From a virus, in the IMG/VR virus record IMGVR_UViG_3300034018_003010: 64,000 bases of DNA, one strand, 5' to 3'. The position numbers and the translations under genes are program-made. The notes below the pieces were generated by a model that was given only the letters and a program-made list of their open reading frames with translations, did no database searches and had not been told where the DNA came from. This document shows positions 14,525 through 54,609 of this stretch, in pieces. Positions within the stretch are counted from its first letter, which is position 1; every line of letters starts with the position of its first letter.

Positions 14525-14550
14525 AAAATTAAAAATATTAATATTAATTT

Positions 14551-14580
14551 AATTCCCAGCCTAGGCTGGGAATTTTTTTT
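14551..14580 (+). terminator. Intrinsic terminator
   Basis: Perfect palindrome aattcccagcctaggctgggaatt followed by a T run, after stop 14524. Confidence 0.85.
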
Positions 14581-14588
14581 AAATGGCG

Positions 14589-14596
14589 AATAAATA
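14589..14596 (+). promoter_or_regulatory. Late-promoter-like motif AATAAATA
   Basis: Lies 6 nt before ATG 14603, just after a terminator; no SD. Confidence 0.6.
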
Positions 14597-14602
14597 CTTA
14601 TT

Positions 14603-17600
14603 ATGACAGGCGAATACCCACAAATCACATTCCGTGTAAAACCAGTTTTTACAAACCTTTATAACTATCCACTACCAGGGACTGATAGAGTTCAGACTTG
14701 GTATCAATTAGAAGATGGGGCAATTTGGGTTGATTATGTGCCTTATAGATTAAGAAGTGGAAATTCTTTTAATTTATATGGAGCACAAGCTTTAGATGTT
14801 TATACAAGATATATTTTAAAAACTATACCAGGCGATAGAATATTAGAATTTGATTATTTTGGAAAAGTAATAGATAATTCTTCAAATTTAGTAATTTTAA
14901 ATGATGTTTTGCCAACTGGAGCTGCATTTGTTCCATATAGTAAAATACTTCAAACACAAAATACAAGCCAACCTTTAGAATGGAAAATAACATCTGGAAA
15001 ACTTCCATTAGGAATGTATTTAGATTCTTCTACTGGAGAACTTTATGGAACCCCATTAGTATCTGGAATGTATCCATTTACAATAAGTCTGACAGATAGT
15101 TCTATTCCGCCAATTTATGATAGCAGGCCATATTTATTAAGAATTGCTTCAAGTTCAACAACAACAGTTCCTACACAAATACAGCAAAATGGAGTTCAAA
15201 CAGCACTTCCCGGCGGAGTTGTTGCTGTTGGATCTGCGGGAGATGTTTTAACCTATACAACAAATTATACTGTTGGAAACACGACTACAACAACAGTTAC
15301 TATTCTAGGAAATTTAGCATTAACTTTAACTCATTCTGATTCTTATAACGGACAAACATTTACATATGTTCACCAAGGAATAACATATATTGGTACATTT
15401 GGAGCCGCAAACGTATTTGGTGTTGTAACAACAACAACAACTCCTGCCCCAACAGTTTTTGTAATTACTTCTACTGGAACTCCTTTGAGTGCTCCAGGAA
15501 ATTTAACGGTTACAGGAATTGCAACAAATACTTTAACATATACAGCTATTAACACAACAACTGGATCTACATGCACAACAACAGCTTCAATTAGTGGAAT
15601 AAATGTTTTAACTATTTCTAATGATGTAATTTATAGCGGACAGCAGTTCTCATTTAACTATTTTGGAACAATTTATACTGGAACTTTTTGCATAAATAAT
15701 ACATTTTTACCAACTACAACAACTAGCACAACAACTCCAAATCCTTTATTTACAACAACCACCACAACAACTACTACAACTACTAGCACAACAACCACTA
15801 CTACTACAACCACAACTACTACTACTGCATCTCCAGCAACAACCACTAGCACAACCACTGCATCTCCAGTAACCACCACCACTACTACAACTATTGTTCC
15901 AGTAACTACAACTACAACTACTACAATAGTTCCAGTAACAACTACTACAACTACTACAACTATTGTTCCAGTAACTACAACAACAACCACCACAATAGTT
16001 CCAGTAACTACAACAACTAGCACAACTAGTGCTCCAACAACCAGTACAACTAGTGCTCCAACAACTACTACAACTATTGCCCCAACAACTACTACAACTA
16101 GTGCCCCAACAACCAGCACTACAACTAGCGCTCCAACAACCAGCACTACAACTAGCGCTCCAACAACAACCAGTAGCACAACTAGCACAACAACAACGCC
16201 AATTCCTTCATGCTTATCAAGTACTCAATCAGTAATAGTAATAAACTGGTCTGGACAAAACACATATGTATTTGGTGGCACAATTGGATTCTTTGGCGTA
16301 AATACTGGTGTTTATCAATTTACAAGCGTACCTTCTACACATCCAATAGCATTCTTAAACAACTCCATAGGAAATGTTTCTTACACAGGAACTGTTCTTG
16401 CAGGATCTGGAATAGCCCCAGATGGAAACACTTATAACTTCTACTCTGGAACTGTAACTTTAACTGTAACAGGTTCTTTTGGCAGATTAAGCTATGCTTG
16501 CTTGAATCACGGCTACATGGGTGGCCAAGACAATATAACATTCACAACATATTGTGTGTCTCCAACCACAACTACTACAACCACACCAGTTCCAACTACA
16601 ACCACTACTACAACTACGCCCTCACCTACTACCACAACAACCACCACAACAACCACAACAACCACCACAACAACACCCGCACCTACTACAACAACCACTA
16701 CAACCACAACTACTTCAACCACAACTACTTCAACCACCACCACGCCAGCACCTACCACAACAACCACTTCAACCACAACAACCACAACTACTACAACAAC
16801 ACCAGCTCCTACAACTACTAGTACAACCACTTCTACCACTACAACATCAGCACCTACTACCACAACCACAACTACAACCACTTCAACCACAACTACAACA
16901 ACCACTACAACAACACCAGCACCTACTACCACAACAACAACTACAACCACAACTACTACAACAACACCAGCACCTACTACCACAACAACTACTACAACAA
17001 CCACTACAACAACACCAGCACCTACTACCACAACTACTACTACAACTACCACGTCAACATCTACTACAACAACTACAACCGATGTACCTTCTGGATCTTT
17101 ATATTTAATGGGATTGAATGGAAGCGGTCAGATAGGAGATGGAACTGCTATAAGCAGAAGCATTCCGACTCAAGTGTTGGGTTCAGGAGCATGGAAAATA
17201 TTAGGAGATAATGGATATTCAACATCAGTATTTAATGCAGGCATTAAAAATGATAACACTTTGTGGTTATGGGGAAATGGCAATTACATAGCACAGAATT
17301 CAAATGTAGGCAATAAATCTTCTCCAGTTCAAATATATGGCGGAGGCACATGGACTGATGTCGCCCAAACATACCGTACCGGAGCGGCTGTAAAATCAGA
17401 TGGCACTTTATGGACATGGGGAGATAACTATTGGGGAGCTATAGGTCGCTATGGGCTAGCTTACAACAGCTTTATTTATTCGCCTGTACAAACAACTCTA
17501 GGCGGAAGCACATGGAGCAAAGTTGCTGGTGGATATGGTCAAGTATTTGCAATAAAAACTGATGGAACACTATGGGCTTGGGGCGCAAATGGAGGCGGAA

Positions 17601-20446
17601 CTCTTGGACTTGGATTTGTTGGCGGACAAGGATATGGAGGCATGTTTTCCCCAGTTCAAGTAGGAACAGATACAACATGGAAAATGGTTGGATCACTTTA
17701 TGCTGGTGGAATTGCAATCAAACAAGACAATACATTATGGATATGGGGAAATAATAACAATGGTCAGTTAGGACAAGGAAATATCATAAACAGAAGCTCG
17801 CCTGTTCAAGTTGGAACAGGAACAGATTGGGCTTTTGTCCCAAAAACAGCATCGGGAATAACTAGCTCTGCTTTTGCAATTAAAAATGATGGTTCTCTTT
17901 GGGGTTGGGGCGGAAACAACAGTGGGCAATTAGCTCAAAATAACACAGCAGATATAAGCTCTCCTGTTCAAATTACTGGTACATGGAGCAAAGTAACCTA
18001 CAACCGTTCTGTTATAGGACTAAAAACAGATGGAAGCTTATGGGCTTGGGGACATAACTCATATGGCACCATAGGAGATAACACAAAGATACATAGAAGC
18101 TCTCCAGTGCAAACAACTCTTGCAGATACAAACTGGATAAATGTTGTTGGATTTGGTGGAATTAGAGCTACAACCACATCTACTACAACTACATCTACTA
18201 CAAGTACATCTACAACATCCACTACATCAACAACACAGGCTCCTGGTGCGCTATATACATGGGGCTATAGACATCTTGGATCTTCAGGGGATAATAATAA
18301 CACTGTAATATATCAGTCTCCAACACAAATAATTGATGCAAGTCAATACCAAGATTTGCCACCTAACACGAGTGGATACGGATCATGTTTTGCCATAAAA
18401 CCAGATGGAACATTATGGGCTTGGGGATTGAACTCTTATTATGGAGCACTTGGAGATGGAACATTAGAAAATAGATCTTCACCTATTCAAATCACCTCAA
18501 ATACATGGAATATGGTATCTTCAAGTTCGCTTGCAACTCTTGCTATAAAATCTGATAATACATTGTGGGGATGGGGAGGCGGAGCATTCCTGCCCAACAA
18601 TTCTAATACTAGCTATAGCTCTCCCATACAAATTGGAACAGATACATGGAGATATGTTAATACTGGAGGACAAACCGGGGCAGGAATAAAAACAGATGGT
18701 ACTTTGTGGCTTTGGGGAGGCAATCAGAATGGACAACTTGGCAATAATCAGGTATCATATAATACGCAAAGTTCTCCAACACAAACAGTTGCTGGAGGAA
18801 ATAATTGGATTTTTGTTAATGTTAGTGGCGATGGGGTTGTTCATGCCATAAAATCTGATACAAATTTATGGGCTTGGGGGAATAATTCTTGGGGGCAAAT
18901 TGGAAACAATACTAGTTATGTAAGTTATTCAAGTCCTATACAAATAGGAGCATCTGGTTGGGCTTATGTAAGCTCAACCAAATATCATGTACTTGCTGTA
19001 AAAACCAATGGCACATTATGGGCATGGGGTTATAATGCCTATGGAATTTTAGGTTTAAATACAGATACTCCTTATTCAGGGGTTAGCTCTCCTATCCAAG
19101 TAGGAACAGACACAAATTGGAAAAAGTCTACTGCTCTAGACTATTCATCCGCAGCAACAAAAACGGATGGCACATTATGGGCATGGGGTTCAAATTATTA
19201 TAACCAAACTGGAAACCCATATGCAGGATACGCACTTTCATCTCCAATACAAACATTAGCAAATGATAATTTATGGATTGATATATCTGGTAATAGTTAT
19301 GGAGTTTATGCAACTAGAAGTGCTGGATATGTAGCTACTACACCTTCGCCTACGACTAGCACTACTACAACGACTCCACAACCAGGAAGTTTATTAGGAA
19401 TGGGAGTTAATTCTTATGGTCAAATTGGGAATAACACAACAAATTCACAATCTTTCCCAACACAAGAAATTACAAATTCATCATGGTCAAAATTACCAAG
19501 TGGCAGCTATCTTTATTCCGCTTATGTAGGCATGGGCGGAATAAAAACAGATGGCACTCTTTGGACATGGGGATATATTTGGGATTCTGGTTCTATTGTT
19601 CACAGGTCTTCTCCTGTACAAATAAGTACAGGTGGAACATGGACAGATTTTTCAATATCTGGTTATTCAGTTAATGCTGTTAAGTCTAATGGAACATTGT
19701 GGGCGTGGGGACAATTACCAGGAAACAGTAATAACTCTAGCCCAACACAAATTGGAACAGACACAGACTGGAAATATGTGTTTAGAAATTCATATGTTTC
19801 TGCTGCAATTAAAAATGATGATACTGCATATTTATGGGGATCCGATATATCTTATGGATTATTTGGTGACAATACAGCAACTAATTCATCTAAATTAATA
19901 CCGACACAAACAATAACTGGTTCTTGGAAGATGATTGTTGGTGGCAATGCTATGTTTGGAATAAAAACAGATGGAACATTATGGTCTTGGGGATACAATG
20001 CCTATGGACGACTTGGATTAAATGATACAATAAACAGAAGTTCTCCAACACAAATAAGCGGGTCTTATACATATGTTTCATCAGATGGATATAGTGTATA
20101 TATGGCTGTAAAATCTGATGGAACATTATGGGGATGGGGCAACGGACAATCTATAATAAATGCTATAGCTTTCAATGGTGGTTTCTATCAATATCAAGGT
20201 TATAGTTCTCCAATTCAACTATTTTCATCAACAGGATGGACCAAAGTACTTGGTTTTAATGATAGTTCAATTGCTTTGAAATCAGATGGAACAGCATGGA
20301 CATGGGGATATAATAGGTATGGACTGGCTGGAAATGGCAAGATAGTTCCATTCTACGCATCTACATATAGTCCTGTGCAGGTAAACTATACCGGCTGGTC
20401 AGATATTTACTCCAATAGAGATACAAACTTTGGATTGTTTAATTGA
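14603..20446 (+). CDS. Giant modular virion surface protein B (shared N-domain, Ig, 2x ~85-aa repeat, cupredoxin-like domain, poly-Thr linkers, 3 RCC1 propellers)
   Basis: Paralog of 1582: MTGEYPQITFRVKP vs MLGEYPQISFRVRP. It has RCC1 repeats and the STHP...YACLNHGYMGG motif. Confidence 0.85.
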   Translation: MTGEYPQITFRVKPVFTNLYNYPLPGTDRVQTWYQLEDGAIWVDYVPYRLRSGNSFNLYGAQALDVYTRYILKTIPGDRILEFDYFGKVIDNSSNLVILNDVLPTGAAFVPYSKILQTQNTSQPLEWKITSGKLPLGMYLDSSTGELYGTPLVSGMYPFTISLTDSSIPPIYDSRPYLLRIASSSTTTVPTQIQQNGVQTALPGGVVAVGSAGDVLTYTTNYTVGNTTTTTVTILGNLALTLTHSDSYNGQTFTYVHQGITYIGTFGAANVFGVVTTTTTPAPTVFVITSTGTPLSAPGNLTVTGIATNTLTYTAINTTTGSTCTTTASISGINVLTISNDVIYSGQQFSFNYFGTIYTGTFCINNTFLPTTTTSTTTPNPLFTTTTTTTTTTTSTTTTTTTTTTTTTASPATTTSTTTASPVTTTTTTTIVPVTTTTTTTIVPVTTTTTTTTIVPVTTTTTTTIVPVTTTTSTTSAPTTSTTSAPTTTTTIAPTTTTTSAPTTSTTTSAPTTSTTTSAPTTTSSTTSTTTTPIPSCLSSTQSVIVINWSGQNTYVFGGTIGFFGVNTGVYQFTSVPSTHPIAFLNNSIGNVSYTGTVLAGSGIAPDGNTYNFYSGTVTLTVTGSFGRLSYACLNHGYMGGQDNITFTTYCVSPTTTTTTTPVPTTTTTTTTPSPTTTTTTTTTTTTTTTTPAPTTTTTTTTTTSTTTTSTTTTPAPTTTTTSTTTTTTTTTTPAPTTTSTTTSTTTTSAPTTTTTTTTTSTTTTTTTTTTPAPTTTTTTTTTTTTTTPAPTTTTTTTTTTTTTPAPTTTTTTTTTTSTSTTTTTTDVPSGSLYLMGLNGSGQIGDGTAISRSIPTQVLGSGAWKILGDNGYSTSVFNAGIKNDNTLWLWGNGNYIAQNSNVGNKSSPVQIYGGGTWTDVAQTYRTGAAVKSDGTLWTWGDNYWGAIGRYGLAYNSFIYSPVQTTLGGSTWSKVAGGYGQVFAIKTDGTLWAWGANGGGTLGLGFVGGQGYGGMFSPVQVGTDTTWKMVGSLYAGGIAIKQDNTLWIWGNNNNGQLGQGNIINRSSPVQVGTGTDWAFVPKTASGITSSAFAIKNDGSLWGWGGNNSGQLAQNNTADISSPVQITGTWSKVTYNRSVIGLKTDGSLWAWGHNSYGTIGDNTKIHRSSPVQTTLADTNWINVVGFGGIRATTTSTTTTSTTSTSTTSTTSTTQAPGALYTWGYRHLGSSGDNNNTVIYQSPTQIIDASQYQDLPPNTSGYGSCFAIKPDGTLWAWGLNSYYGALGDGTLENRSSPIQITSNTWNMVSSSSLATLAIKSDNTLWGWGGGAFLPNNSNTSYSSPIQIGTDTWRYVNTGGQTGAGIKTDGTLWLWGGNQNGQLGNNQVSYNTQSSPTQTVAGGNNWIFVNVSGDGVVHAIKSDTNLWAWGNNSWGQIGNNTSYVSYSSPIQIGASGWAYVSSTKYHVLAVKTNGTLWAWGYNAYGILGLNTDTPYSGVSSPIQVGTDTNWKKSTALDYSSAATKTDGTLWAWGSNYYNQTGNPYAGYALSSPIQTLANDNLWIDISGNSYGVYATRSAGYVATTPSPTTSTTTTTPQPGSLLGMGVNSYGQIGNNTTNSQSFPTQEITNSSWSKLPSGSYLYSAYVGMGGIKTDGTLWTWGYIWDSGSIVHRSSPVQISTGGTWTDFSISGYSVNAVKSNGTLWAWGQLPGNSNNSSPTQIGTDTDWKYVFRNSYVSAAIKNDDTAYLWGSDISYGLFGDNTATNSSKLIPTQTITGSWKMIVGGNAMFGIKTDGTLWSWGYNAYGRLGLNDTINRSSPTQISGSYTYVSSDGYSVYMAVKSDGTLWGWGNGQSIINAIAFNGGFYQYQGYSSPIQLFSSTGWTKVLGFNDSSIALKSDGTAWTWGYNRYGLAGNGKIVPFYASTYSPVQVNYTGWSDIYSNRDTNFGLFN

Positions 20447-20491
20447 TATTAAACTAAAACTGAAGTCCGTTGTTTTCTTGGCTCAAGGATC
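20443..20491 (-). mobile_element. Degenerate copy of the ~50-bp IS200/IS605-end-like mini-element
   Basis: The reverse complement gatccttgagccaagaaaacaacggacttcagttttagtttaatatcaa keeps GATC, GAGCCAAGAA, GACTTCAG and the terminal TCAA of the copies at 46995 and 50457. Confidence 0.55.
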
Positions 20492-20498
20492 AAAATCT

Positions 20499-20826: not shown

Positions 20827-20893
20827 AGTTCTAATCAGCTATTAATTAACTCAATCTTGTTAAAAATTTTACTTCTTGTCGATAAATAAAATT

Positions 20894-43988: not shown

Positions 43989-44007
43989 TTTTAGATAGGA
44001 GATAAAC

Positions 44008-44673
44008 ATGTCTTATAATATGGGTATCGGAGCCTTGGGTAACTCCACAGGCATCATGTTTAAGAGAAAATTTAGATGGCTTTTCAGCGTAGAAGATATT
44101 TGTTCTGCTGGAGGAATTAGTAGAGTTCCAGAATCATTCGTGAAATCTGCTGCTCGTCCTAATATTTCTTTCGAAGAAACAGAAATCAACTTCCTACATG
44201 GCAAAATGTATATTCCTGGCAAGGCAACATTTGAATCCATTACAGTAACATACTATGATGTTACAAATGATCAAACATCTCCCTTGGTGCCATTATATAG
44301 CTGGATTGCAAACGTCTATGACTTTTTAAGTCCAACTGGCGGCATTACCAATCCTCGTATGAACGCAAGAGCATATGATGTTGGTGCTAGAGCCCATTAC
44401 GGCGGCAGAGGCGTTCTAACCATGCTTGATGGTGGTGGACTTGCCCTAGAAGCTTGGACATTGTACGACTGCTGGCCACAATCAGTTAACTTTGGTGACC
44501 TAGATTATGCAACACAAGATGAAGCAACAATTGAGTTGACTGTTCGTTATCAGTTCGCCAAATGGCAGAACTTCTGCGGAGCGCAGCCAGCCCCTTGCTT
44601 TGGTTCTACTTGCGGCGCAGATCTTCCTGCTGGTCTCAATGCTCCAGCCGGTCTAAATGGCGGAAGAATCTAA
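44008..44673 (+). CDS. Tail tube protein (gp19-like)
   Basis: KRKFRW...SAARP.I....I......PGK...ITVTYYD...WTLYDCWP.SVNFGDLDY...IELTVRY. Confidence 0.85.
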   Translation: MSYNMGIGALGNSTGIMFKRKFRWLFSVEDICSAGGISRVPESFVKSAARPNISFEETEINFLHGKMYIPGKATFESITVTYYDVTNDQTSPLVPLYSWIANVYDFLSPTGGITNPRMNARAYDVGARAHYGGRGVLTMLDGGGLALEAWTLYDCWPQSVNFGDLDYATQDEATIELTVRYQFAKWQNFCGAQPAPCFGSTCGADLPAGLNAPAGLNGGRI

Positions 44674-44696
44674 TAATTAATTTATTTTTAAAATTT

Positions 44697-44730
44697 GTAC
44701 TCCTGCACATTAAATAATGTGCAGGAGTAC
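44697..44730. other. Perfect 15-bp inverted repeat between the two tube genes (terminator/processing hairpin)
   Basis: gtactcctgcacatt-aaat-aatgtgcaggagtac. Confidence 0.8.
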
Positions 44731-44751
44731 TTTCATTATAAAGGTATTCAA

Positions 44752-45378
44752 ATGTCTTTAATAACTGGTTTTAATATGGGCATAGGCTGGGCGGCCTCTG
44801 CGGTTTTCAAGAGAAAATTTAGATTTTTTGTATCAATACAAAACTTTGCTTCGCCAACAAGTTTGCTGCCAATAATTCCAGAAAGAGCAGCCAGACCTTC
44901 TATTTCAATTAACGAAATGAAAGCCGAACATACAACAGAAACAATTTATTATCCCGGCAGACCTGAGTGGAAACCAATACAGTTTACATTTTTTGATTAT
45001 GTTCCATATCCTACTGGAGGTAATGCCAATACTCCGCATCCTATGTGGATATGGTTAAATTATTATTATAATACTTTTAGTGGTAACTTAAAAACATCTT
45101 ATAATGACCCAGTTTACAATAGTCCTGCACCTTATTTACAGTCGGTAAACGGTCAATCCATTAGCAGAATAAAAAGAAACATTCTAATACACGTTTTTGA
45201 TGGGTCTGGAAATGAAATAGAAAGATGGGCGTATGCTAATTGCTACCCAACAGAAATAGACTTTGGAGACTTGGACATGGGCGACCAAGATATTTGTCGT
45301 GTAACATGCACAATGAGATATGATAGAGCTTACACAGTAAGTTGTAATATGCCTTTGCCAGACTTAAAACTAGTCTAA
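44752..45378 (+). CDS. Second tail tube-like protein (gp19/gp54-like)
   Basis: FNMGIG...FKRKFRF...RAARPSI...PGRPEW.PI.FTF.D...ERW.YANCYP..IDFGDLD...MRYD. Confidence 0.8.
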   Translation: MSLITGFNMGIGWAASAVFKRKFRFFVSIQNFASPTSLLPIIPERAARPSISINEMKAEHTTETIYYPGRPEWKPIQFTFFDYVPYPTGGNANTPHPMWIWLNYYYNTFSGNLKTSYNDPVYNSPAPYLQSVNGQSISRIKRNILIHVFDGSGNEIERWAYANCYPTEIDFGDLDMGDQDICRVTCTMRYDRAYTVSCNMPLPDLKLV

Positions 45379-45606
45379 GAATTGCTCAGCTTTTATAATA
45401 TCTCTGCACTTTTTTAAGAAATCTTCCAATTCTTTTGGCTTGCATTCTAGTATTCTGCAGGCTCCACTTTTATTTAATCGACCCTTTTTGGTGTAAGCTT
45501 TTGTCTCGTTAAGCAACAAAGCTTCTATTTCTTTTCCAAGTCCATTTCTCTCAAGAATATCAAGCAATTCTTGTTTTTCTAAAATTTCTAAAAAGCTTTT
45601 TCTCAT
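45370..45606 (-). CDS. Small hypothetical protein, possibly HTH-like
   Basis: 78-aa ORF containing YTKKGRLNKSGACRIL. Confidence 0.6.
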   Translation of the reverse strand: MRKSFLEILEKQELLDILERNGLGKEIEALLLNETKAYTKKGRLNKSGACRILECKPKELEDFLKKCRDIIKAEQFLD

Positions 45607-45637
45607 AATATATTATATACAAATAAATTAATTATTA

Positions 45638-46183
45638 CTATCTTTTTTGATAAAAACTGTCAAAGTTATTATCATATTCTGAATTAGGGGATTCTTTATT
45701 TCTAGTTATAACATCAAAGCCAAGTTTTATTTTAATAATATCACCATAACGACGTTTTAAATCATTGTAATTTCTAGCAGATCTCCACAATTGTCTAAAA
45801 TGATTTAATATACAGGTTGTCAAATAATTAAATGCTTTGCCTTTTTGAGGATCAAATTTTTCAGCTCTTTCGAAACAAATTAACACACCTTCTTGTATTG
45901 CGTCATCATCATCTATGTGGCTAAATTTTGCATATCTAACAATATTATTACTAAGAGTATAAAATGCTGTTGCCAATATCATCTGTGCATCTTTATATTC
46001 TTGTTCTGCTTCGTTTGAAATAGAATCGCATATACTCAAAGGATTTTTAAGTTTTTTACTATTATTTTTTTGCCATTCTATTTCGTTCTTAAGTATTTGT
46101 ATTTTTTTCTTTTTTCTTTGGGCATTTTGATATTTCATAATAATTTTTTCAAATGCTTTATTATTAAGATATTCGCTAGACAT
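45638..46183 (-). CDS. Late transcription sigma factor, T4 gp55-like
   Basis: YLNNK.F...KF...DDAIQEGV..CF....KFDP.KGKAFNYLTTCILNHF.Q. Confidence 0.8.
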   Translation of the reverse strand: MSSEYLNNKAFEKIIMKYQNAQRKKKKIQILKNEIEWQKNNSKKLKNPLSICDSISNEAEQEYKDAQMILATAFYTLSNNIVRYAKFSHIDDDDAIQEGVLICFERAEKFDPQKGKAFNYLTTCILNHFRQLWRSARNYNDLKRRYGDIIKIKLGFDVITRNKESPNSEYDNNFDSFYQKR

Positions 46184-46245
46184 TTATCTCCTAAAATAAA
46201 ATAAAATATACTTTAAATTAGTTAGATAATTATTATTTTAATTTT

Positions 46246-47022
46246 ATGATAGGAATAATTTTTGAAAACGAACAAGATATTACCTCAGACATTTTAAATA
46301 ATAAAAGTGTTAGAGTGCTAACCGAATCTGAAGTGCGATCAAATAGTTATAAGCAATTAATGAGTGAAATCAATTTAAATGCAATAATTAAAATAAAATA
46401 TGGAGAAGTAATTAGACCGCCTTTTAGTTTTAATCCTTTAAAAAATTCTTACATTATGATAAGCTCTGGGTCTTGGATAGATAAACAAAATAGATTATTA
46501 GGTCACGAATCTTCAAGCGAAGAATGTCAATCAATTCAAATAACATCTAAAAATAACAACCATCCTTTTTTATCAGAAGATCAATTTGATCTTAAATTAT
46601 CTTTTATAGAAAAAAATTATAATTATTTTTTAAATGAAAGTAAAAAAATTATTTTAAAACATGGAGTTACAAAACAAACAATAATGCTTCTTTTTTATAG
46701 TGCAACAATTCTTGGAATAATAGAAAACAAAAGTAATGAAGCACTCAAATTTATAAGACAGGCTTTAGAAATAAAACCCGACTTTAGCGAATTTTATTCT
46801 ATTGCTGGTGATATTTATTTAAAAAATGAAAACTATTCATTAGCAATAAATGCTTATGAGCAAAGTATTTTAAAATATGAAATAAGAAACAAAAGAGACA
46901 TTTTGCCTTTTTCATCAATTAGAAGTACAAATTATTGCAAAAATCAAATTGATGCAATAAAATCAAAATATGGAAAATCAAAAAAAATTGTTACGATCTT
47001 TGAGCCAAGAAAGCCCCCCTGA
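46246..47022 (+). CDS. TPR-containing hypothetical protein
   Basis: EALKFIRQALEIKPDFSEFY...GDIYL....YSLAINAYEQSI. The last codons run into the mini-element. Confidence 0.65.
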   Translation: MIGIIFENEQDITSDILNNKSVRVLTESEVRSNSYKQLMSEINLNAIIKIKYGEVIRPPFSFNPLKNSYIMISSGSWIDKQNRLLGHESSSEECQSIQITSKNNNHPFLSEDQFDLKLSFIEKNYNYFLNESKKIILKHGVTKQTIMLLFYSATILGIIENKSNEALKFIRQALEIKPDFSEFYSIAGDIYLKNENYSLAINAYEQSILKYEIRNKRDILPFSSIRSTNYCKNQIDAIKSKYGKSKKIVTIFEPRKPP

Positions 47023-47045
47023 CTTCAGCCGGGGGAGGATGTCAA
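46995..47045 (+). mobile_element. 51-bp IS200/IS605-end-like hairpin mini-element
   Basis: gatctttgagccaagaaagcccccctgacttcagccgggggaggatgtcaa: a GC hairpin ending in TCAA, 46/51 identical to the reverse complement of 50457-50507. Confidence 0.7.
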
Positions 47046-47473
47046 ATTAAGTCAAGACTATTTATAACTACAGTTACTTGATCTTCATATCTTGATAATG
47101 TTACTTGTTTTCTTCCTTCTCTAAATTCTTGCAATCTTGCCTCTAGCTCCATTATATTGCAGCTAATCACACGCCAATTATTAACAATTCTTGGTGGCTC
47201 AGATTGTTGCTGAACCACATTTTCTGGTTGCGGTTGTGGCGGCACTTGCTGCTCAATCTTTACAATATTTTTGTCGGGAAAATATTGTTGCAAAACATCT
47301 GAAGCTTCTGCAATTAATCTTTCAAAGAACTTCATATTGCAGCCGCAATTAATATTCGATCTTACTCTTGCAACGTCTACAGATAGGCTTTCTGGAAGCT
47401 TAGAAACGAAGGCATCATCCTTCATTGCGTTTTTAATATCTAAAAGACTAAGAGGATTGCTTGCTTTCATCAT
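47042..47473 (-). CDS. Hypothetical protein
   Basis: 143-aa ORF whose TGA stop overlaps the mini-element end. Confidence 0.65.
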   Translation of the reverse strand: MMKASNPLSLLDIKNAMKDDAFVSKLPESLSVDVARVRSNINCGCNMKFFERLIAEASDVLQQYFPDKNIVKIEQQVPPQPQPENVVQQQSEPPRIVNNWRVISCNIMELEARLQEFREGRKQVTLSRYEDQVTVVINSLDLI

Positions 47474-47687
47474 TTTTTATCTCCTTCATTAACATGCCAC
47501 AAACTTTGCATTTATAGATTAGCTTTTCTGGTAGAAAAGACGCTTTTTTGGTTTTTTTATTTTCATTGTCAAAATATGGAAGGTTTCTAATTATTTTTGT
47601 TCTTTTTATATATGCAACATCTTCTAAACTTTCCACTATGTGCTTTTTATTGCACTTCTCACACCAAAAAAATATATTAGAACTCAT
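47448..47687 (-). CDS. Small zinc-ribbon protein
   Basis: CEKC...CKVCG; the likely start ATG 47687 is coupled to the upstream stop. Confidence 0.6.
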   Translation of the reverse strand: MSSNIFFWCEKCNKKHIVESLEDVAYIKRTKIIRNLPYFDNENKKTKKASFLPEKLIYKCKVCGMLMKEIKNDESKQSS

Positions 47688-48019
47688 TATTTTAATACAG
47701 TATTTGCTTCCAAAAATGTTAAAAAGTATGCCCAAAAATATGAAAGGCATGATCCGGCACAACCACACACAAAAACAAATCTCAAAGATGTCCAATCATT
47801 CAAAAAAATATTGTAATCAATACAACATAGCCCACAAATTATTCCAGACCAAAAACCACAACATTGATAACAATCAATAAGCTTCATAAAAAAATTAGGC
47901 ATAAACTTGCCTAAAAATCCTTTTACAGGTTTCATTATTTCGCTATCTACAACTATTTGTGTAAAACCAATGCTTCCAAAAATAAACACAACAACTTGAA
48001 GCAAATTATTTAATTCCAT
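47687..48019 (-). CDS. Small membrane protein, DUF1360-like
   Basis: Hydrophobic helices with LIDCYQCCGFW. Confidence 0.6.
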   Translation of the reverse strand: MELNNLLQVVVFIFGSIGFTQIVVDSEIMKPVKGFLGKFMPNFFMKLIDCYQCCGFWSGIICGLCCIDYNIFLNDWTSLRFVFVCGCAGSCLSYFWAYFLTFLEANTVLK

Positions 48020-48378
48020 ATTGTAACCTCAATTTTTTCATTATGTCTGTATATTGACATATCAATAAAATTATATGCTTGTGGCAAATCATTCTCCAAA
48101 TTTTTCACACAAGATGAAAGATGTGTAAACATTTTTTTAAATTCCATAGAAAATTTAACTTTTTTTCCGATAACTTTTTCAATAATTTGCAAATCTTTTT
48201 CATTTAAAACCATACATAATCTTGAAATTGCACTTTTCATTAGAGGCTTAAAGTTTGGATTCACAATTCCAAGTTTATAATCTATAAATATTTCTTTATA
48301 ATGATCTAGCTCTTTATACAACTGTTTATTTTGAAAGATTATTTCCTCTATATTATCAAAACTTAAAGTTATTTCCAT
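48010..48378 (-). CDS. Hypothetical protein
   Basis: 122-aa ORF. Confidence 0.6.
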   Translation of the reverse strand: MEITLSFDNIEEIIFQNKQLYKELDHYKEIFIDYKLGIVNPNFKPLMKSAISRLCMVLNEKDLQIIEKVIGKKVKFSMEFKKMFTHLSSCVKNLENDLPQAYNFIDMSIYRHNEKIEVTIWN

Positions 48379-48417
48379 AGCACTATATTAGTAGTATATT
48401 CAAAGGAGATTTAATCA

Positions 48418-49536
48418 ATGAACGATGATACTTTTAGACCGCAAGGTCATGGGCAGAATGTTCCAAATAACATACCTGTTAATTCGCCAGCAAATAACAC
48501 TGCGGCAGAGGGTGTGCGAATTTCTGGAAAGATACCAGCGGCCTTGCAAGCCGTTTTAAATTCTCAGCAAAATAGCGCAGAAGGACAGCCCTATTCTGTT
48601 CCTCCTGTCCAACCTCCTGTTCCTCCAATGCAGCAGCCTCCAGTGCAACCGCAGCCCAACAATTTTCAACAGCCGCAATATCAAGCTGCTCCTCAAACTT
48701 CTAATGCTACACCACAAAATGTTGCATATAGCAATTCCAATTTGAACGCTCTTCTTGAAAAATTAAAGGGCCAAAATTATGTCTATGAAGAAATTGTTTT
48801 GCCTTCTTTAGGTAAATTTTACGATGGCACCGATTGTCCAACCAATGGTGTTCTACACATTAGGCCAATGACTGGGGAAGATGAACAAATTTTGGCAACG
48901 CCTCGATTTGTCAAAAAAGGCCAAGCAATTAACATGATTTTTTCAAGATGTATTCAAGAACAAATTAAAGTTGCAGATTTACTTTCAGTAGATAGAACAT
49001 TTTTGTTAATTTACTTACGAGGTATTTCTTATGGAACAGAATATGAAGTGGAAATTAAAGACCCAGATTCCGACCGTAAGTTCACAACAGTAATAGATCT
49101 TGACACCTTGCCAGTTGAAAAATGCCCTGAAGATTTTGGATCAGATTTATCAGGGGTATTGCCAAAAAGCGGATTTAGATTTTCTTACAGATTTTCAAAA
49201 GGAAAAGACGAAACAGATTTGCAAGATCACAGAGACAGAAGACTCAAAATATCTGGTGACTCTGGATCAGATGATAGCCTTCTTTATAGAACAGCACAAT
49301 TAGTTGAACAAATTGAAGGAATTACCAACAAAACAGAAATTGTTACCTTGCTTAGAAATCTTCCTATTCAAGACTTGACTTATTTAAGAAACTTGGTTAC
49401 AGAGCCTCCATTTGGAGTTGATACCAAAGTAACTATCATTTCTCCAGTTACATCAGACGAATTTACTATAGAATTGCCACTTGAAGCAAATTTTTTCTTC
49501 CCCCGCAATCGGAAAAAGGAGAAGACCCAAGCTTAG
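48418..49536 (+). CDS. Baseplate hub assembly / tail chaperone, T4 gp26-like, with a Pro/Gln-rich N-terminal extension
   Basis: EIVLPSLG.FY...IRPMT.EDE.IL...DR.FLLIYLR.ISYG..Y...ELPLEANFFFP; SD AAGGAG. Confidence 0.75.
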   Translation: MNDDTFRPQGHGQNVPNNIPVNSPANNTAAEGVRISGKIPAALQAVLNSQQNSAEGQPYSVPPVQPPVPPMQQPPVQPQPNNFQQPQYQAAPQTSNATPQNVAYSNSNLNALLEKLKGQNYVYEEIVLPSLGKFYDGTDCPTNGVLHIRPMTGEDEQILATPRFVKKGQAINMIFSRCIQEQIKVADLLSVDRTFLLIYLRGISYGTEYEVEIKDPDSDRKFTTVIDLDTLPVEKCPEDFGSDLSGVLPKSGFRFSYRFSKGKDETDLQDHRDRRLKISGDSGSDDSLLYRTAQLVEQIEGITNKTEIVTLLRNLPIQDLTYLRNLVTEPPFGVDTKVTIISPVTSDEFTIELPLEANFFFPRNRKKEKTQA

Positions 49537-49553
49537 TATTATGGAGAAATCTC

Positions 49554-49712
49554 ATGGATGAGATTTTCTTTTTTCAGTATCATTTAAGGATTGACAAGTT
49601 CACATGGCAAAAATACGCTATAGTAGAAAGAAAATACCTAATAGATAAGTATATTCAACAAAAAGATATGGAACAGAAGCATTTAGAAAAGGAATCTAAG
49701 AGAAAAAGGTGA
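49554..49712 (+). CDS. Unannotated gp51-like small ORF in the -1 frame (MDEIFFFQYHLRID...AIVERKYLID...)
   Basis: The frame is open 49485-49712. The helix-rich E.F....H......ER.Y.I pattern is typical of the ORF that follows gp26-like genes. GGAG precedes ATG 49554. Confidence 0.65.
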   Translation: MDEIFFFQYHLRIDKFTWQKYAIVERKYLIDKYIQQKDMEQKHLEKESKRKR

Positions 49713-49716
49713 TTAG

Positions 49717-50460
49717 ATGGGTGCCATAAAAGAACGATATCAAAATCCTGTGCAAGGTGATACTGTAATCCTTCGTTTGTTTTTTTACAACAGCAATAAT
49801 TTTTCAAATGTTAGTAGCATTGATCAAGTAGAGTTGTTTTTAGTAGCGAAGGGAAGTTCTGCTAGTGATACATCAGCAAGAACTTTAAAGAAAACGATTA
49901 CGGGGGCAAGTGTAATTCAAGATGGCACAGGGCAATATTATATTGAAGTTGCTTTAGATTCTATTGATTTCGAAATAGGAAATTACGTTGACGTTTGGAC
50001 AGTTAATTTTACTGGTGACTTTAATGATACCGAACAAATAACAAATGTATTTACAATTTATCCAAATTTGTGGTACACCGCTCCAATTCCAGTTGTTTAT
50101 GATTTTAACTTTCAATTTAGGCCAGCAAAAATAAGAAAGGGTTCTAAGAGATATATTATCATTCAAGTTACTCCGAATGTTCCTAAAGGCACAGACTTAC
50201 AAAGATATTATGAAAACTTGGCAGTAGTTGGGAACCTTTTTGTTAGTATTGAGCAAAGAACAGGTGCTTGCTTGCCAGAAGAAACAGATCTTAGAATGAT
50301 AGCAGAAAAAGTTCCAGTAACTTTTAGAGAAATGATGTATGGATATTATCAAATTGATACAACAGATATGGAAATAGGAATTTATGATATATGGTTTGAA
50401 TTAGACCTTGGAGATAATGTTTACATATCTGACAGAAATCAAATCCAAATTTTTAATTGA
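49717..50460 (+). CDS. Putative virion structural protein (two beta-sandwich-like halves)
   Basis: QGDTVILRLFF...GTGQYY...IGNYVDVW...YYQIDT....GIYDIWF; located in the tail cluster. Confidence 0.6.
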   Translation: MGAIKERYQNPVQGDTVILRLFFYNSNNFSNVSSIDQVELFLVAKGSSASDTSARTLKKTITGASVIQDGTGQYYIEVALDSIDFEIGNYVDVWTVNFTGDFNDTEQITNVFTIYPNLWYTAPIPVVYDFNFQFRPAKIRKGSKRYIIIQVTPNVPKGTDLQRYYENLAVVGNLFVSIEQRTGACLPEETDLRMIAEKVPVTFREMMYGYYQIDTTDMEIGIYDIWFELDLGDNVYISDRNQIQIFN

Positions 50461-50507
50461 CATACTCCCCCGACTAAAGTCAGGGGGGATTTCTTGGCTC
50501 GAAGATC
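50457..50507 (-). mobile_element. 51-bp IS200/IS605-end-like hairpin mini-element
   Basis: Reverse complement gatcttcgagccaagaaatcccccctgactttagtcgggggagtatgtcaa; it fills the whole gap between two convergent stop codons. Confidence 0.7.
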
Positions 50508-51053
50508 TTAAGGATTTTCGAAAAAATAATTATCTTCCAGCTTTAGTAATTCAGCAAGCTTAATCGCAGTCCACTCTCTGTAAATTATTTTATACTTATA
50601 TTCGCCTTGCATGTTGTTTGTTTTTACAAAAGCAATCCAAGGCTTTCTATCTTTTTTCCAAAGTAGCATTGGCATCTTTCCGGTTCTTTTACTTTCATCT
50701 TGCACTTGTTCTAAAAAAGAATCTAAATCTGAAATGCCATCTTCAAATACAGAATTTAAATCAATTTTGTTATAACCACCTTTTGATTCTAAAACAAACT
50801 TAAATCCTTTTGGGCAGCATATGTCGCCACTAAATGTTTCCTTTGCATGGGTTGGCAAGTTTTTAACCTGTCCCCATCTATTTCCAGAGCCAACGCTACG
50901 ACTAAAAGATTCTGCGTATCCTTTGAATCTATCATTTAAAACGGCAACAAGCTCTCTTTCAACACGCTTGCCCTTACGGTTGCCATTTACACCTTTCTTT
51001 TTGTTTTTAAATTTTTCAACATGATAAGCATCATCTAAATCATCAAAATTCAT
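50508..51053 (-). CDS. Holliday junction resolvase (PD-(D/E)xK type)
   Basis: NGNRKGKRVEREL...GDI...F.LESK...PMLLWKKDRKPW. Confidence 0.75.
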   Translation of the reverse strand: MNFDDLDDAYHVEKFKNKKKGVNGNRKGKRVERELVAVLNDRFKGYAESFSRSVGSGNRWGQVKNLPTHAKETFSGDICCPKGFKFVLESKGGYNKIDLNSVFEDGISDLDSFLEQVQDESKRTGKMPMLLWKKDRKPWIAFVKTNNMQGEYKYKIIYREWTAIKLAELLKLEDNYFFENP

Positions 51054-51072
51054 AATTATCCTAGATTCTAGA

Positions 51073-52071
51073 TTATTGTGATAAAAACTCAAGCTTAATA
51101 GAGTCTGATATTATATTTATTTGATCTAGATAAGTAATAATATCATCAACTTCTTTATCTGAAATCGAATTGTTTTCAATGCATATTTTAATTCCAGACT
51201 CTATTTCTAGAAGCTTCTCTTTTGCTGCACACAGGTGATCTAAAACACTTTGGTGTTGTAAATTTTTAACTTGTTTTTTAGAAGAATCTGGGCTTATTAT
51301 TTCTGTCTCCTTTGCAAAATAACTTTTAATGTTTATAACACTATTATTTAGTTCAAAACAAAATATTTCATATGGTTTTATATTATAAAAGTTTTTATAA
51401 AAATCAAATTCAAAACCTTTAGATTTCAATGTATTAATAGATGATAAAAATATTTCAAAAGTACTAAAAAATATAATTTGACCACATTCTTTTCTAACAT
51501 CTAAAAAGAATAATGGTCTATGTTTGTTTCTTGTTAATATTAATTTTTTAATTTTATAATTAGATTCAGCATAAGCTATAGAAAAATAACTATTTTTTGT
51601 ATTATCAAACAAATACTTAATATTATTAAATATATTATTATCTTTTTCTAATACTCTTAATATTATTTCAGAATCGCATTCTGTTTTTACAGAATTTAAT
51701 ATTTTAAGATTTTGATATTCTTTAAAATTAATTAAACCATTATGTATAATTGCTTTTTTATAATCATCACTAACAAAAGGATGGTTGTTTTCATTTTCTG
51801 ATGGTAATCCAACTCCTGTAGATGCTGCTCGACAATGAAATATTCCTAAATCTAAATTTTCTTCCCAAATATCTTGATAATGTTTTGTTTTTATAATATC
51901 TTTGCTTGGACCTGGTTGCTTGTAATAATAAACATTTCCATTTGTTGAACAGCAATAAAAACCAGCAGCATCTATGCCACGAACTTGCATGGTTTCGTAA
52001 AGTTCTGTAATCAGAATACGACTTTTGTTTTGGTCTGTGCTTTCGCCTATAAATCCTAATATTCCACACAT
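51073..52071 (-). CDS. Class II (Ntn) glutamine amidotransferase domain protein
   Basis: MCGILG, RGIDAAG, HCRAAS, NNHPF, HNG and CDSE motifs. Confidence 0.85.
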   Translation of the reverse strand: MCGILGFIGESTDQNKSRILITELYETMQVRGIDAAGFYCCSTNGNVYYYKQPGPSKDIIKTKHYQDIWEENLDLGIFHCRAASTGVGLPSENENNHPFVSDDYKKAIIHNGLINFKEYQNLKILNSVKTECDSEIILRVLEKDNNIFNNIKYLFDNTKNSYFSIAYAESNYKIKKLILTRNKHRPLFFLDVRKECGQIIFFSTFEIFLSSINTLKSKGFEFDFYKNFYNIKPYEIFCFELNNSVINIKSYFAKETEIISPDSSKKQVKNLQHQSVLDHLCAAKEKLLEIESGIKICIENNSISDKEVDDIITYLDQINIISDSIKLEFLSQ

Positions 52072-52076
52072 TAATA

Positions 52077-52598
52077 TTAAATAGCGTTGGGATTTTGAAT
52101 TTCAGATGGCTCTCCAAGAGGAGGAGCACCAGATGTATCAAATCCAGATATAGGTTGAGCCTGTGGATTTATATCAACAGGTTGTTTTTCGGTATTTCCA
52201 GAATCAGGAGTTTGACTTGTTTGAGATTCTTTTCCAGAAGTTCCCAAATCATTCAAAGGAACATTCAATTTCATCGCTATACTTTTGATTTCTTCAACAG
52301 AATCGGAAAGAACTTTTTCAAAATCATCTTTTTCTTCTAGCAGCTTAGATAATGCAATTCCTACTTTTTGAAGATTTTTAAAATATTTTTTATTACTAGA
52401 GTCCCAATGACCTCTAAGTATAGATTGTATATTGGAAATAATTGTTTCAATTGTATTGCAAGTTGTTGTCATTCCAATATCTTTATAATTTTCTTGCAAT
52501 TCTTGTAAATCTTTTAACAAATTACCAATTTTATCTCCTAATAGTTGGAGATTTTCTAATATTATAAATTTTTTGAAATTTAACATTTCATTGTACAT
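52077..52598 (-). CDS. Hypothetical protein with a CTS-like N-terminus (possible start 52586)
   Basis: MLNFKKFIILE followed by a helical body and a disordered tail. Confidence 0.65.
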   Translation of the reverse strand: MYNEMLNFKKFIILENLQLLGDKIGNLLKDLQELQENYKDIGMTTTCNTIETIISNIQSILRGHWDSSNKKYFKNLQKVGIALSKLLEEKDDFEKVLSDSVEEIKSIAMKLNVPLNDLGTSGKESQTSQTPDSGNTEKQPVDINPQAQPISGFDTSGAPPLGEPSEIQNPNAI

Positions 52599-52608
52599 AA
52601 AAAACTCT

Positions 52609-54255
52609 TTAATATGATATATTGGTATTTAGTGCTTCACCTTTCTTCTTTGCAGCATTTTCTACCAATCCAACAAATAAAGGACTAGCTGCGGTCAATC
52701 TAGATTTGAATTCTGGGTGAGCTTGAGTAGCAACAAAATATGGATGAACAGATTTGTCCATCTCCATAATTTCAATAAGATTCGATTCTGGATTCCTTCC
52801 TGATACCACAAAACCTTTTGAAGCAAATTCCAACCTACTAACCAATTCGCTATTAACCTCATAACGATGACGATGTCTTTCGGATATGTTCTTCTTCTTG
52901 TAATATTCACTTGCCAAGGAATCTTTTGCAACCTCACAAGAATAAGATCCAAGTCGCATTGTACCAGACTTTTTCTTAATAGATTCTTGACCGGGAATAA
53001 AATGCACAACAGGATGCGTTGTGCTCTTGTCAAATTCTTCAGAGTTTGCGTCTTCCCAGCCTATGCTTCTGGCAAATTCAATTACAGCACATTGCAATCC
53101 AAGACAGATTCCCAAGAATGGTATCTTCTTTTCTCGAACATATTTGATTGCTCTTATTTTACCTTCTACACCACGACTATCAAATCCTCCAGGAACGATA
53201 AGGCCATCAATGTCGTTAAAAAATTCCTTAAGACACTTGGAATCCTTGCAATCTTCTACCTGCGCAGCGTTAATCCATGATATATCAACTTTTACATTTT
53301 TATTTACAGCAGCATGAAATACAGCCTCTTTAAGACTCAAATAAGCTTCATCAAAGTTGTCATACTTGTTTAATATTCCAATCCTAATTGTCTTCAAATC
53401 TTTATTTCCAATATATTTTTCTACCAAGTCACGATACTTGTGAATCCTGACACCATTTCTAGTCAAATGAAACTTATCAATAATCAAATCGTCAACATGC
53501 CTGTTGTAAAATTCAATTGGAACTTGATAAACGGTAGGAACATCTGGTGCTTCAAATACCGCAGAACGAGGAACATTAGTTATATTTGAAATCTTTTCCA
53601 TAATCTGATTTGGTATCTGCCTATCTGTTCGACAGAATAATATCTCAGGTTGCAAACCGCTGCTTTGCATACTTTGAACGGCTTGTTGTAAAGGCTTGGT
53701 TTTGAATTCCTTTATTGTTGGAATCCAAAGAACAGGAGCCACCAAAGAAACAATTACATCATTGGCATTCTTTTGTTTAAACTGCCGTATTGCTTCTAAA
53801 AATGGATAAGCCTCTGAATCCCCTACTGTACCTCCAATTTCAACTAAAACTATATCTGCGTCTTTTCCTAAGTCTTTAAGCCTGTCAATTATCTTGTTAG
53901 TAACATGAGGAACAACTTGAACAGTCTGTCCCAAATACTTGCCTTCTTCTTGCTCTTGTATTATCTCTTTATATACAGTGCCAGAAGTTAATATATTCTT
54001 AGAGCTAACTTGACAACCAATGATTCTTTCATAGGTTCCCAAATCAAGATCTGTTTCACTGCCATCGTCGCACAAAAACACCTCTCCATGCTCTCTAGGA
54101 GCAAGGATGCCAGCATTTGTATTCAAGTAAGGATCAAACTTAATAGGGACTATTTTTAAGCCTCTAAGACTCAAAAGAAGACCCAAGCTGGCTATAGACA
54201 CGCCTTTACCTGTGCCGCTTATTACCCCACCACAGACTACAATGTATTTAGCCAT
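52609..54255 (-). CDS. pyrG: CTP synthase
   Basis: GGVISGTGKG, KFDPYLN, ETDLDLG, EIGGTVGD, KTKP.Q, PGGF..RG.EGKI, GICLG.Q, ERHRHRYE and QAHPEF. Confidence 0.97.
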   Translation of the reverse strand: MAKYIVVCGGVISGTGKGVSIASLGLLLSLRGLKIVPIKFDPYLNTNAGILAPREHGEVFLCDDGSETDLDLGTYERIIGCQVSSKNILTSGTVYKEIIQEQEEGKYLGQTVQVVPHVTNKIIDRLKDLGKDADIVLVEIGGTVGDSEAYPFLEAIRQFKQKNANDVIVSLVAPVLWIPTIKEFKTKPLQQAVQSMQSSGLQPEILFCRTDRQIPNQIMEKISNITNVPRSAVFEAPDVPTVYQVPIEFYNRHVDDLIIDKFHLTRNGVRIHKYRDLVEKYIGNKDLKTIRIGILNKYDNFDEAYLSLKEAVFHAAVNKNVKVDISWINAAQVEDCKDSKCLKEFFNDIDGLIVPGGFDSRGVEGKIRAIKYVREKKIPFLGICLGLQCAVIEFARSIGWEDANSEEFDKSTTHPVVHFIPGQESIKKKSGTMRLGSYSCEVAKDSLASEYYKKKNISERHRHRYEVNSELVSRLEFASKGFVVSGRNPESNLIEIMEMDKSVHPYFVATQAHPEFKSRLTAASPLFVGLVENAAKKKGEALNTNISY

Positions 54256-54286
54256 TTATTAATCCTTGAGTGATACCATAAAATAC

Positions 54287-54320
54287 AAAAAAAGCGGAAG
54301 CCATTCAATAGCTTCCGCTT
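54287..54320 (-). terminator. Intrinsic terminator after the nrd operon
   Basis: aagcggaagc-cattcaata-gcttccgctt with an A-run on the left, giving a U-tract on the minus strand. Confidence 0.75.
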
Positions 54321-54353
54321 AATTTAAATTAGTTTGTTTTATTTTAAAAAAAA

Positions 54354-54608
54354 TCAAACGCTAAAATCGTCTGTTTCTTCAAAAAACTTACAACCTTGAT
54401 CCTCGAATGTCAAAAGACCTCTTCTTGGACTATGTCTGTTTTTGCAAACGCCCCAATCTTTACCCAAATCACCTTGCAATTTCAAAAAGTGTTTGCAATT
54501 ACAAGAGCAATCAGGACCATAGTCTTCTTCTCTAGACCTTTTGCCCCAAGGCTGAAAATCTGAATCCAACTTTATTAAAACCATATCTAATTGTTTCCGC
54601 TTTTCCAT
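54354..54608 (-). CDS. DUF3027-like small Cys-rich protein
   Basis: DCSCNCKHF..L.G.LG.DWGVC.N..SPR.GLLTFE.QGC. Confidence 0.65.
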   Translation of the reverse strand: MEKRKQLDMVLIKLDSDFQPWGKRSREEDYGPDCSCNCKHFLKLQGDLGKDWGVCKNRHSPRRGLLTFEDQGCKFFEETDDFSV

Positions 54609-54609
54609 A

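Follow-up and report, generated by a model that had tools for sequence, protein, structure and literature searches.

Short copies at gene ends in a large phage genome: probable fused-end remnants of an IS608-like, tnpB-only insertion sequence

Phage genome and anatomy of the three copies

The IMG/VR virus record IMGVR_UViG_3300034018_003010 provides a 64-kb stretch of DNA (64,000 nucleotides; hereafter, the window, meaning the whole of this stretch) from a large tailed phage. The window has a G+C content of 36% and encodes a T4-type baseplate hub, gp19-like tube proteins, a late sigma factor, and giant RCC1-repeat fibre proteins. Its relatives in IMG/VR are contigs of 80-260 kb that are estimated to be 17-52% complete; therefore, the phage genome is likely to be several hundred kilobases in size. 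At the ends of genes in the window lie three short copies, c1, c2, and c3, of a hairpin-bearing sequence. With a probability of roughly 90%, these copies are terminal-only palindrome-associated transposable elements (PATEs), i.e., fused-end remnants of an IS608-like, tnpB-only member of the IS200/IS605 family of insertion sequences.

The three copies and their positions had been proposed from the DNA letters alone (the original prediction), and both were borne out by direct reading, a repeat search, and a covariance model (Table 1). c1 and c2 are near-identical, and c3 is a decayed copy. The arms that contain c1 and c2 (46984-47050 and 50452-50518) form the longest inverted repeat of the window, with 67 nt, 85% complementarity, and a separation of 3401 nt. 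The covariance model, which was trained on six copies and run over the entire window, scored c2 at 79.9 bits (E 1e-21), c1 at 78.8 bits (2e-21), and c3 at 35.3 bits (2e-8), and beyond these copies it returned no match in the window above 13 bits. Neither tnpA nor tnpB was detected in the window by tblastn with the related TnpB or by Pfam scans of small open reading frames (ORFs), as the original prediction had held. In IS608, cleavage occurs 3' of an external TTAC located 19 nt 5' of the left hairpin foot, and an internal TCAA lies 10 nt 3' of the right hairpin foot (PMC3201880, PMC5934647). As counted on c1 and c2, the subterminal hairpin lies 19 nt and 10 nt from the two cleavage sites, in an IS608-like manner.

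Table 1. Coordinates of the three copies, their parts and flanks, and the adjoining genes
Feature	Position	Strand	Remarks
c1	46995..47045	+	51-bp terminal-only element
c1 target tetranucleotide TTAC	46991..46994	+	flank, outside the element; equals the IS608 left cleavage/target site
c1 left end	46995-47013	+	19 nt, GATCTTTGAGCCAAGAAAG; final four bases are the guide AAAG
c1 hairpin	47014-47035	+	22 nt; loop and 3' arm TTCAGCC of right-end type, as in the L032 right end
c1 right tail	47036-47045	+	10 nt, AGGATGTCAA
c2	50457..50507	-	51 bp; c2 is also present in L003/L039
c2 target tetranucleotide TTAA	50508..50511	-	palindromic; read off the sequence
c2 left end	50507-50489	-	guide AAAT at 50492-50489
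c2 hairpin	50488-50467	-	left-end type
c2 tail	50466-50457	-	AGTATGTCAA
c3	20443..20491	-	49 bp; hairpin eroded; left end, guide AAAA, and TCAA end intact
c3 flank	20492-20495	-	now TTTT
TPR-repeat gene	46246..47022	+	last 8 codons and TGA inside c1
143-aa gene	47042..47473	-	TGA stop supplied by c1
247-aa gene	49717..50460	+	TGA stop supplied by c2
PDDEXK/RusA-like nuclease gene	50508..51092	-	TAA stop within the c2 target TTAA, immediately before GATC
1947-aa RCC1-repeat protein gene	14603..20446	+	TGA stop supplied by c3

Empty site and element borders

The borders of c1 can be read from L003, a 12.5-kb phage contig that is 99.2% identical to positions 42475-55068 of the window, carries c2, and lacks c1. 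The alignment of L003 to the window consists of two blocks, 42475-46994 and 47040-55068, with a 51-nt offset; a 51-nt gap placed at 46995-47045 leaves one mismatch, and all other placements leave more. In L003, the empty site reads TTGTTAC/ATTAAG (in its longer form, AAATTGTTAC/ATTAAGTCAAG), and in the window the sequence GATC...GTCAA stands between the same two halves. c1 is an insertion of exactly 51 bp that is located 3' of TTAC, ends in TCAA, and shows neither target duplication nor terminal inverted repeats. The borders given for c1 in the original prediction are exact, and the empty site in a relative that it had called for, in order to decide whether TTGA belongs to the target or to the element, exists in L003: TTAC is the target, and TCAA belongs to the element. 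In particular, the analogy drawn there with a TTGAT-type target concerned the wrong side, as TTGA/TCAA is the right-end cleavage motif of the element.

The insertion target is TTAN at the GATC end. Among 18 distinct insertion sites, which were found by left-end core scans of viral and metagenome contigs, TTAN flanks the element at 17, and TTTT is found at c3. Empty sites for the other two copies were also sought. For c2, 12 loci with the neighbouring nuclease gene were found; the convergent 247-aa gene is not conserved at these loci, and the sites are not comparable. For c3, the search returned only distant RCC1-repeat matches (at most 41% identity) and no ortholog. No near relative of window positions 44-54 kb was found by megablast in the phage record collection.

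Parent elements and their relatives

Full-length elements of 1399-1408 bp with the same left end as the window copies are present in four related freshwater phage contigs (L002, L029, L032, and L037). They contain an ORF of the 413-aa class that encodes TnpB (PF01385, 2e-29; PF07282, 1e-18). After the ORF, the right end reads GGGAAT-CTCCCGGCTT(T/C)AGCCGGGGG-AGGATGTCAA, the hairpin of which is also given as CTCCCGGCTTTAGCCGGGGG; thus, it holds the right guide of IS608, GAAT, and its tail is identical to that of the window copies. The layout of the parent, which follows TTAN, is GATCCTTGAGCCAAGAAAN, left hairpin, tnpB, GAAT, right hairpin, and AGGATGTCAA. The window copies consist of the left end joined to the right tail. 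c2 and the copies in L001 and L004 retain the left-end 3' arm (TTTAGTC), and c1 has the right-end-type arm TTCAGCC. The A-C mismatch of c1 arises because its loop and 3' arm are of right-end type. Since two junction types exist, as exemplified by c1 and c2, at least two separate fusions must have taken place. A TnpB-bearing element with the same end, as sought in the original prediction, is thus at hand, and together with the empty site it supports the proposal made there of a non-autonomous derivative of the IS200/IS605 family.

In viral contigs, 52 stretches that differ widely in G+C content contain the right tail TTNAGNCGGGGGAGGATGTCA. One of them (L130) lies in an unrelated 46-kb phage contig that bears terminal repeats and is rated as complete; this contig carries an IS605-type element encoding TnpA (PF01797, 4e-43) and TnpB, with the ends TTAC...AAAG-hairpin on the left and GAAT-hairpin-AGGATGTCAA on the right. 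Thus, the end architecture is common to a wide clade, autonomous members included.

Several further observations concern the full-length elements and their kin. The closest named relatives of the L002 TnpB (L002:12906-14147) are cyanobacterial, with 55-59% identity (Pseudanabaena, Oscillatoria, Moorea, Gloeothece), and relatives that are 77-92% identical come from metagenomes only. The cyanobacterial proteins may give a weak hint at the host group. Bacterial and archaeal genomes contained no match to the left-end pattern or to the TnpB protein and provided no host lead. In L002, the tnpB frame stops at a TAG within the loop of the right-end hairpin (L002:12880-12910), and the element ends 6 nt ahead of the ATG of a DEAD-box helicase gene.

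Shorter forms were also found. L033 holds a gene-less derivative of 391 bp (L033:909-1299), in which approx. 200 nt of unrelated sequence lie between a left-end segment of 55 nt and a right-end segment of 138 nt; this form may be a guide-RNA-bearing PATE. Its left-end variant is also present in L025, L026, L031, L034, and L036, at six different sites in all, many of them at contig ends. Perfectly palindromic 40-nt forms, TTGACATCCTCCCCCG..CGGGGGAGGATGTCAA, occur in L083 (12297-12337), L089, L098(-), L107(+), L115(+), and L119(-). In these forms, the right-end tail ends both strands, as though one hairpin served two right ends, and they are a kind of mini-element distinct from that of the window. 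A sister subfamily is represented by L031:11573-11623(-), L032:4486-4536(-), and L036:70-122(-), which have GAGCCAAGGAAG, a CTCCCGGC hairpin, either the tail TAGTTGAC or a full left end, and the flank TCAC; one of its copies lies 22 nt from a left end of the main family.

Pairing between guide and target

In IS608, the guides AAAG (left) and GAAT (right), located immediately 5' of the hairpins, pair with the cleavage sites, and an altered left guide leads to an altered target (PMC3201880, PMC5934647). The same relation was sought among the phage elements in a gap-free alignment of the 18 independent sites. When the fourth flank base is matched with the nucleotide directly preceding the hairpin on its 5' side, 14 sites give a T-A pair, two (c1 and L038) give C-G, one (c2) gives A-T, and one (L002) gives no pair. 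Flank bases 1 and 2 form T-A with the guide at all 18 sites. In c1, the target C pairs with the guide G at 47013, and in c2, the target A pairs with the guide T. Changes on both sides are found in three cells of this comparison, a result attained by none of 500 shuffles and in none of the slid controls. At the level of sequence, these covariations indicate that the cleavage/target site is read by the guide tetranucleotide located 5' of the hairpin foot.

To our knowledge, the rule that the guide chooses the target has until now rested mainly on engineered elements. The phage copies provide a natural counterpart of engineered IS608 retargeting: the target is chosen by guide bases that belong to the element, the empty site is known exactly, and 3 of 18 sites show compensating changes.

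Stop codons and effects on neighbouring genes

An overlap with a stop codon in all three copies was a central claim of the original prediction, and the ORF ends confirm it. The stops of the 143-aa, 247-aa, and 1947-aa genes are TGA codons that are the reverse complement of the terminal TCA of the element. Two copies were also said to lie between convergent genes; these are c1 and c2, and c3 lies between co-directional genes. Two further points were absent from that prediction: the TPR-repeat gene enters c1 by 28 nt and stops at the TGA in CCCCCCTGA, and the TAA stop of the nuclease gene directly precedes the GATC of c2.

Comparison with the empty-site strain L003 shows what c1 has changed. The 143-aa gene ends in ...DLM-TAA in L003 and in ...DLI-TGA in the window, and the tail of the TPR-repeat gene is LSQDYL* in L003 and IFEPRKPP* in the window. 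Where c1 is lacking, the 3' ends of the two convergent genes share 26 nt. By reconstruction, the convergent genes at c2 overlapped by 2 nt before the insertion, with both TAA stops in the palindrome TTAA, and the stops changed from AAT TAA to AAT TGA at c2 and from AAA TAA to AAT TGA in L004. The 26-nt overlap in the absence of c1 and the stops shared in TTAA at c2 are also signs of a very tightly packed genome.

The geometry of the ends suggests how such insertions might be tolerated. The TTAN target is the reverse complement of N'TAA, and the reverse strand of the element starts with TTGA. An insertion at an antisense TAA stop thereby converts xxN' TAA into xxT TGA, so that the final codon is altered at its wobble position only and an in-frame TGA is provided. 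In a tightly packed genome, antisense-stop sites may be among the few that tolerate insertion. The window contains 3122 TTAN sites, only 28 of which are TAA stops on the opposite strand, corresponding to a chance of 0.9% per random insertion; therefore, the stop-codon pattern probably reflects the survival of harmless insertions, and we infer that selection lies behind it. Element-made stops account for 4 of the 9 TGA stops among the 43 gene-like ORFs of the window. Across the collections, an antisense-stop overlap is found in four of five mini copies versus none of five longer elements; these numbers are small. The stop-codon association is real, and none of the three outcomes that the original prediction named as refuting it came about. 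A target that is the mirror image of a TAA stop, combined with a spare TGA in the element end, would explain the persistence of such remnants at the ends of genes in compact genomes. For annotation, short changes in C-terminal tails caused by TnpB-only insertion sequences and such remnants are to be expected.

The gene that ends at c3 is one of three giant ORFs (3061, 1255, and 1947 aa) located at 1582-20446, which encode RCC1-type repeats with a period of approx. 150 nt and long Thr-rich linkers; these repeats and linkers give rise to hundreds of low-identity direct repeats. Further downstream, eleven tandem repeats of 261 nt (87 aa) occupy positions 21554-24544 inside a 1530-aa ORF (20876-25468).

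Origin of the copies

By analogy with IS608, a Y1 HUH transposase, TnpA, would act in trans and insert single-stranded DNA 3' of TTAN, which would be recognised by pairing with the tetranucleotide that precedes the left hairpin on its 5' side, and no target duplication would result. What is left in the window copies is the left arm of 19 nt together with its guide, a single hairpin, and the final 10 nt of the right end, closing with TCAA. The preferred explanation for this structure is that a longer element lost its core by deletion between its two hairpins, which are near-identical; this loss could have occurred either in situ or before arrival. The left and right hairpins have TT(T/C)AG and CGGGGGA in common, and deletions at these homologies would yield exactly the c1 and c2 types.

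Several points weigh against this explanation. A single empty site was found (c1 in L003), and no full-length copy was seen at the site of c1, c2, or c3. TnpA was found neither in the window nor in nine related phage contigs, all of which are fragments (3-52% complete, by estimate). The TnpB of the L130 element is only 29% identical to that of L002, and this element is therefore not a direct partner. Guide-target pairing is broken at the L002 site, the flank of c3 is TTTT and not TTAN, and the stop-codon history of c3 requires one assumed flank mutation (TTAT to TTTT).

It is also possible, albeit less probable, that the 51-bp single-hairpin unit is itself mobile, i.e., that TnpA excises and inserts it with one hairpin and one guide serving both ends, in which case the copies would be independent transpositions of a mini-element and not deletion scars. 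Such mobility would account in one step for the presence or absence of c1 between genomes that are 0.8% diverged, versus two steps for insertion followed by deletion, and the site spectrum of the mini copies does differ from that of the longer elements, as described above for antisense stops. Moreover, in c2 (guide AAAT, TTAA/TCAA) and L001 (guide AAAA, TTAT/TCAT), the fourth base at both ends pairs with the single guide; however, the fourth base at the right end does not pair with the guide in c1, c3, and L004. In Haloquadratum, six strain-specific insertions are all of a 52-bp form, and mobilisation of that form has been suggested (PMC3119063). In contrast, the IS608 TnpA dimer is bound to both hairpins, left and right, at the same time, and every cleavage site pairs with a guide of its own (PMC3201880); one hairpin and one guide cannot serve both cleavage sites simultaneously. 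Furthermore, the left/right junctions of c1 and c2 differ, which shows that these are not copies of one amplified mini-element, and only five mini copies were found across all collections scanned. That the 51-bp unit is a self-sufficient TnpA substrate, which spreads in a large phage genome specifically through antisense TAA stops and has the frame repaired by its TTGA end, is unlikely; if true, it would be the smallest natural HUH-mobilised element. Since two hairpins and two guides are required by the IS608 transpososome, we favour an origin by deletion within a longer element.

Two functional roles had been raised in the original prediction, and neither fits the copies well. Read on the gene-sense strand, each copy has a GC hairpin that is located 6 nt after a stop codon and followed by CTTTCTTGG or ATTTCTTGG; c1 and c2 also part pairs of convergent genes whose overlaps, prior to the insertions, were 26 nt and 2 nt, respectively. 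The copies might thus be kept as a portable stop-plus-terminator or RNA-stabilising cassette, comparable to the PeSLs of T4-type phages, which are mobile regulatory cassettes, and an ordinary terminator-like hairpin with flanking A and T runs adjoins the eroded c3. This role is improbable: a consensus terminator scan calls neither c1 nor c2, the fold energies resemble those of shuffles (z -1.6 to +0.1), and the gene-sense strand, on which a C-A mismatch replaces the G-U pair of the element's strand, has the poorer stem, followed by a weak tract, CTTTCTT or ATTTCTT. In addition, the empty-site strain L003 manages without c1, c3 has lost its hairpin, and the copy sequence is merely the tip of an insertion sequence. 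The proposed co-opted terminator is not upheld by these data, and a mild terminator side-effect of the copies is still conceivable.

In TnpB guide RNAs (omega RNAs), which terminate at the right end of the insertion sequence, the guide is derived from the flanking DNA, and the 391-bp relative in L033 retains 138 nt of right-end sequence. These features would suit the idea of orphan guide-RNA genes, in which a guide from the 3' flank is antisense to the end of a phage gene; however, this idea is very improbable for the window copies. Of the right end, no more than the final 10 nt remain in them, so that the approx. 140 nt of conserved upstream right-end sequence, and with it an omega-RNA scaffold of at least approx. 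100 nt, is not retained. Their hairpin 5' arm and the preceding 19 nt are left-end sequence, with only the loop and 3' arm of c1 being of right-end type, and the right-end guide GAAT is missing. With Rfam, neither the window, at gathering thresholds, nor the full-length element L022, at E values of up to 1, gave a match, and the window has no tnpB. The orphan scaffold of the original prediction is thus not supported by the make-up of the copies.

Two other candidates were rejected. c1 and c2 are inverted relative to each other and 3.4 kb apart, as the ends of an invertible segment would be; L003 lacks c1 and yet is colinear with the window. A promoter was considered for the TTGACA formed at the element end, for which there is no properly spaced -10 box.

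Comparison with known systems

The explanation of the copies as fused-end remnants reveals no new mechanism; they are a known kind of remnant, here found in a phage, and they show that both TnpB-only insertion sequences and the remnants of these are in circulation in large freshwater phages. The closest model is IS608 of Helicobacter pylori, which transposes as single-stranded DNA by means of a Y1 HUH TnpA. c1 shares with it the TTAC site, the 19-nt spacing, the guide AAAG, the 10-nt tail, and TCAA, as well as the lack of inverted terminal repeats and of target duplication, and the guide/target rule is seen here as natural covariation. In contrast to IS608, the phage elements carry tnpB only, without tnpA, their commonest guide/target pair is AAAA/TTAT and not AAAG/TTAC, and the window copies are gene-less and have a single hairpin.

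In the archaeon Haloquadratum walsbyi, 52-bp terminal-only PATEs are core-deleted forms of ISHwa23 and HqIRS46; the TnpB-only ISHwa23 of approx. 1.5 kb was reduced to 52 bp by deletion between two near-identical subterminal palindromes, and the mobility of the short form itself was left open (PMC3119063). The phage copies show the same reduction of a TnpB-only element, with strain differences, no target duplication, and uncertain mobility. They differ in that they reside in a large bacteriophage genome instead of an archaeal chromosome, their sequences are unrelated to those of Haloquadratum, and no link to stop codons was reported there (PMC3119063). The PATEs of Geobacillus stearothermophilus are likewise gene-less, have the ends of TnpB elements, and use TnpA in trans (Meers et al., bioRxiv 10.1101/2023.03.14.532601). 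They keep both hairpins and often the guide-RNA scaffold, whereas the window copies keep neither; it is the 391-bp form in L033 that resembles them.

The copies also recall repetitive extragenic palindromic sequences (REPs), which are short single-hairpin repeats located just after genes and tied to a Y1 HUH enzyme, RAYT. REPs have a GTAG-type head, are usually arranged as doublets, reach high copy numbers, and come with a dedicated RAYT gene. None of these features is seen in the window copies, which, unlike REPs, derive directly from the ends of an insertion sequence.

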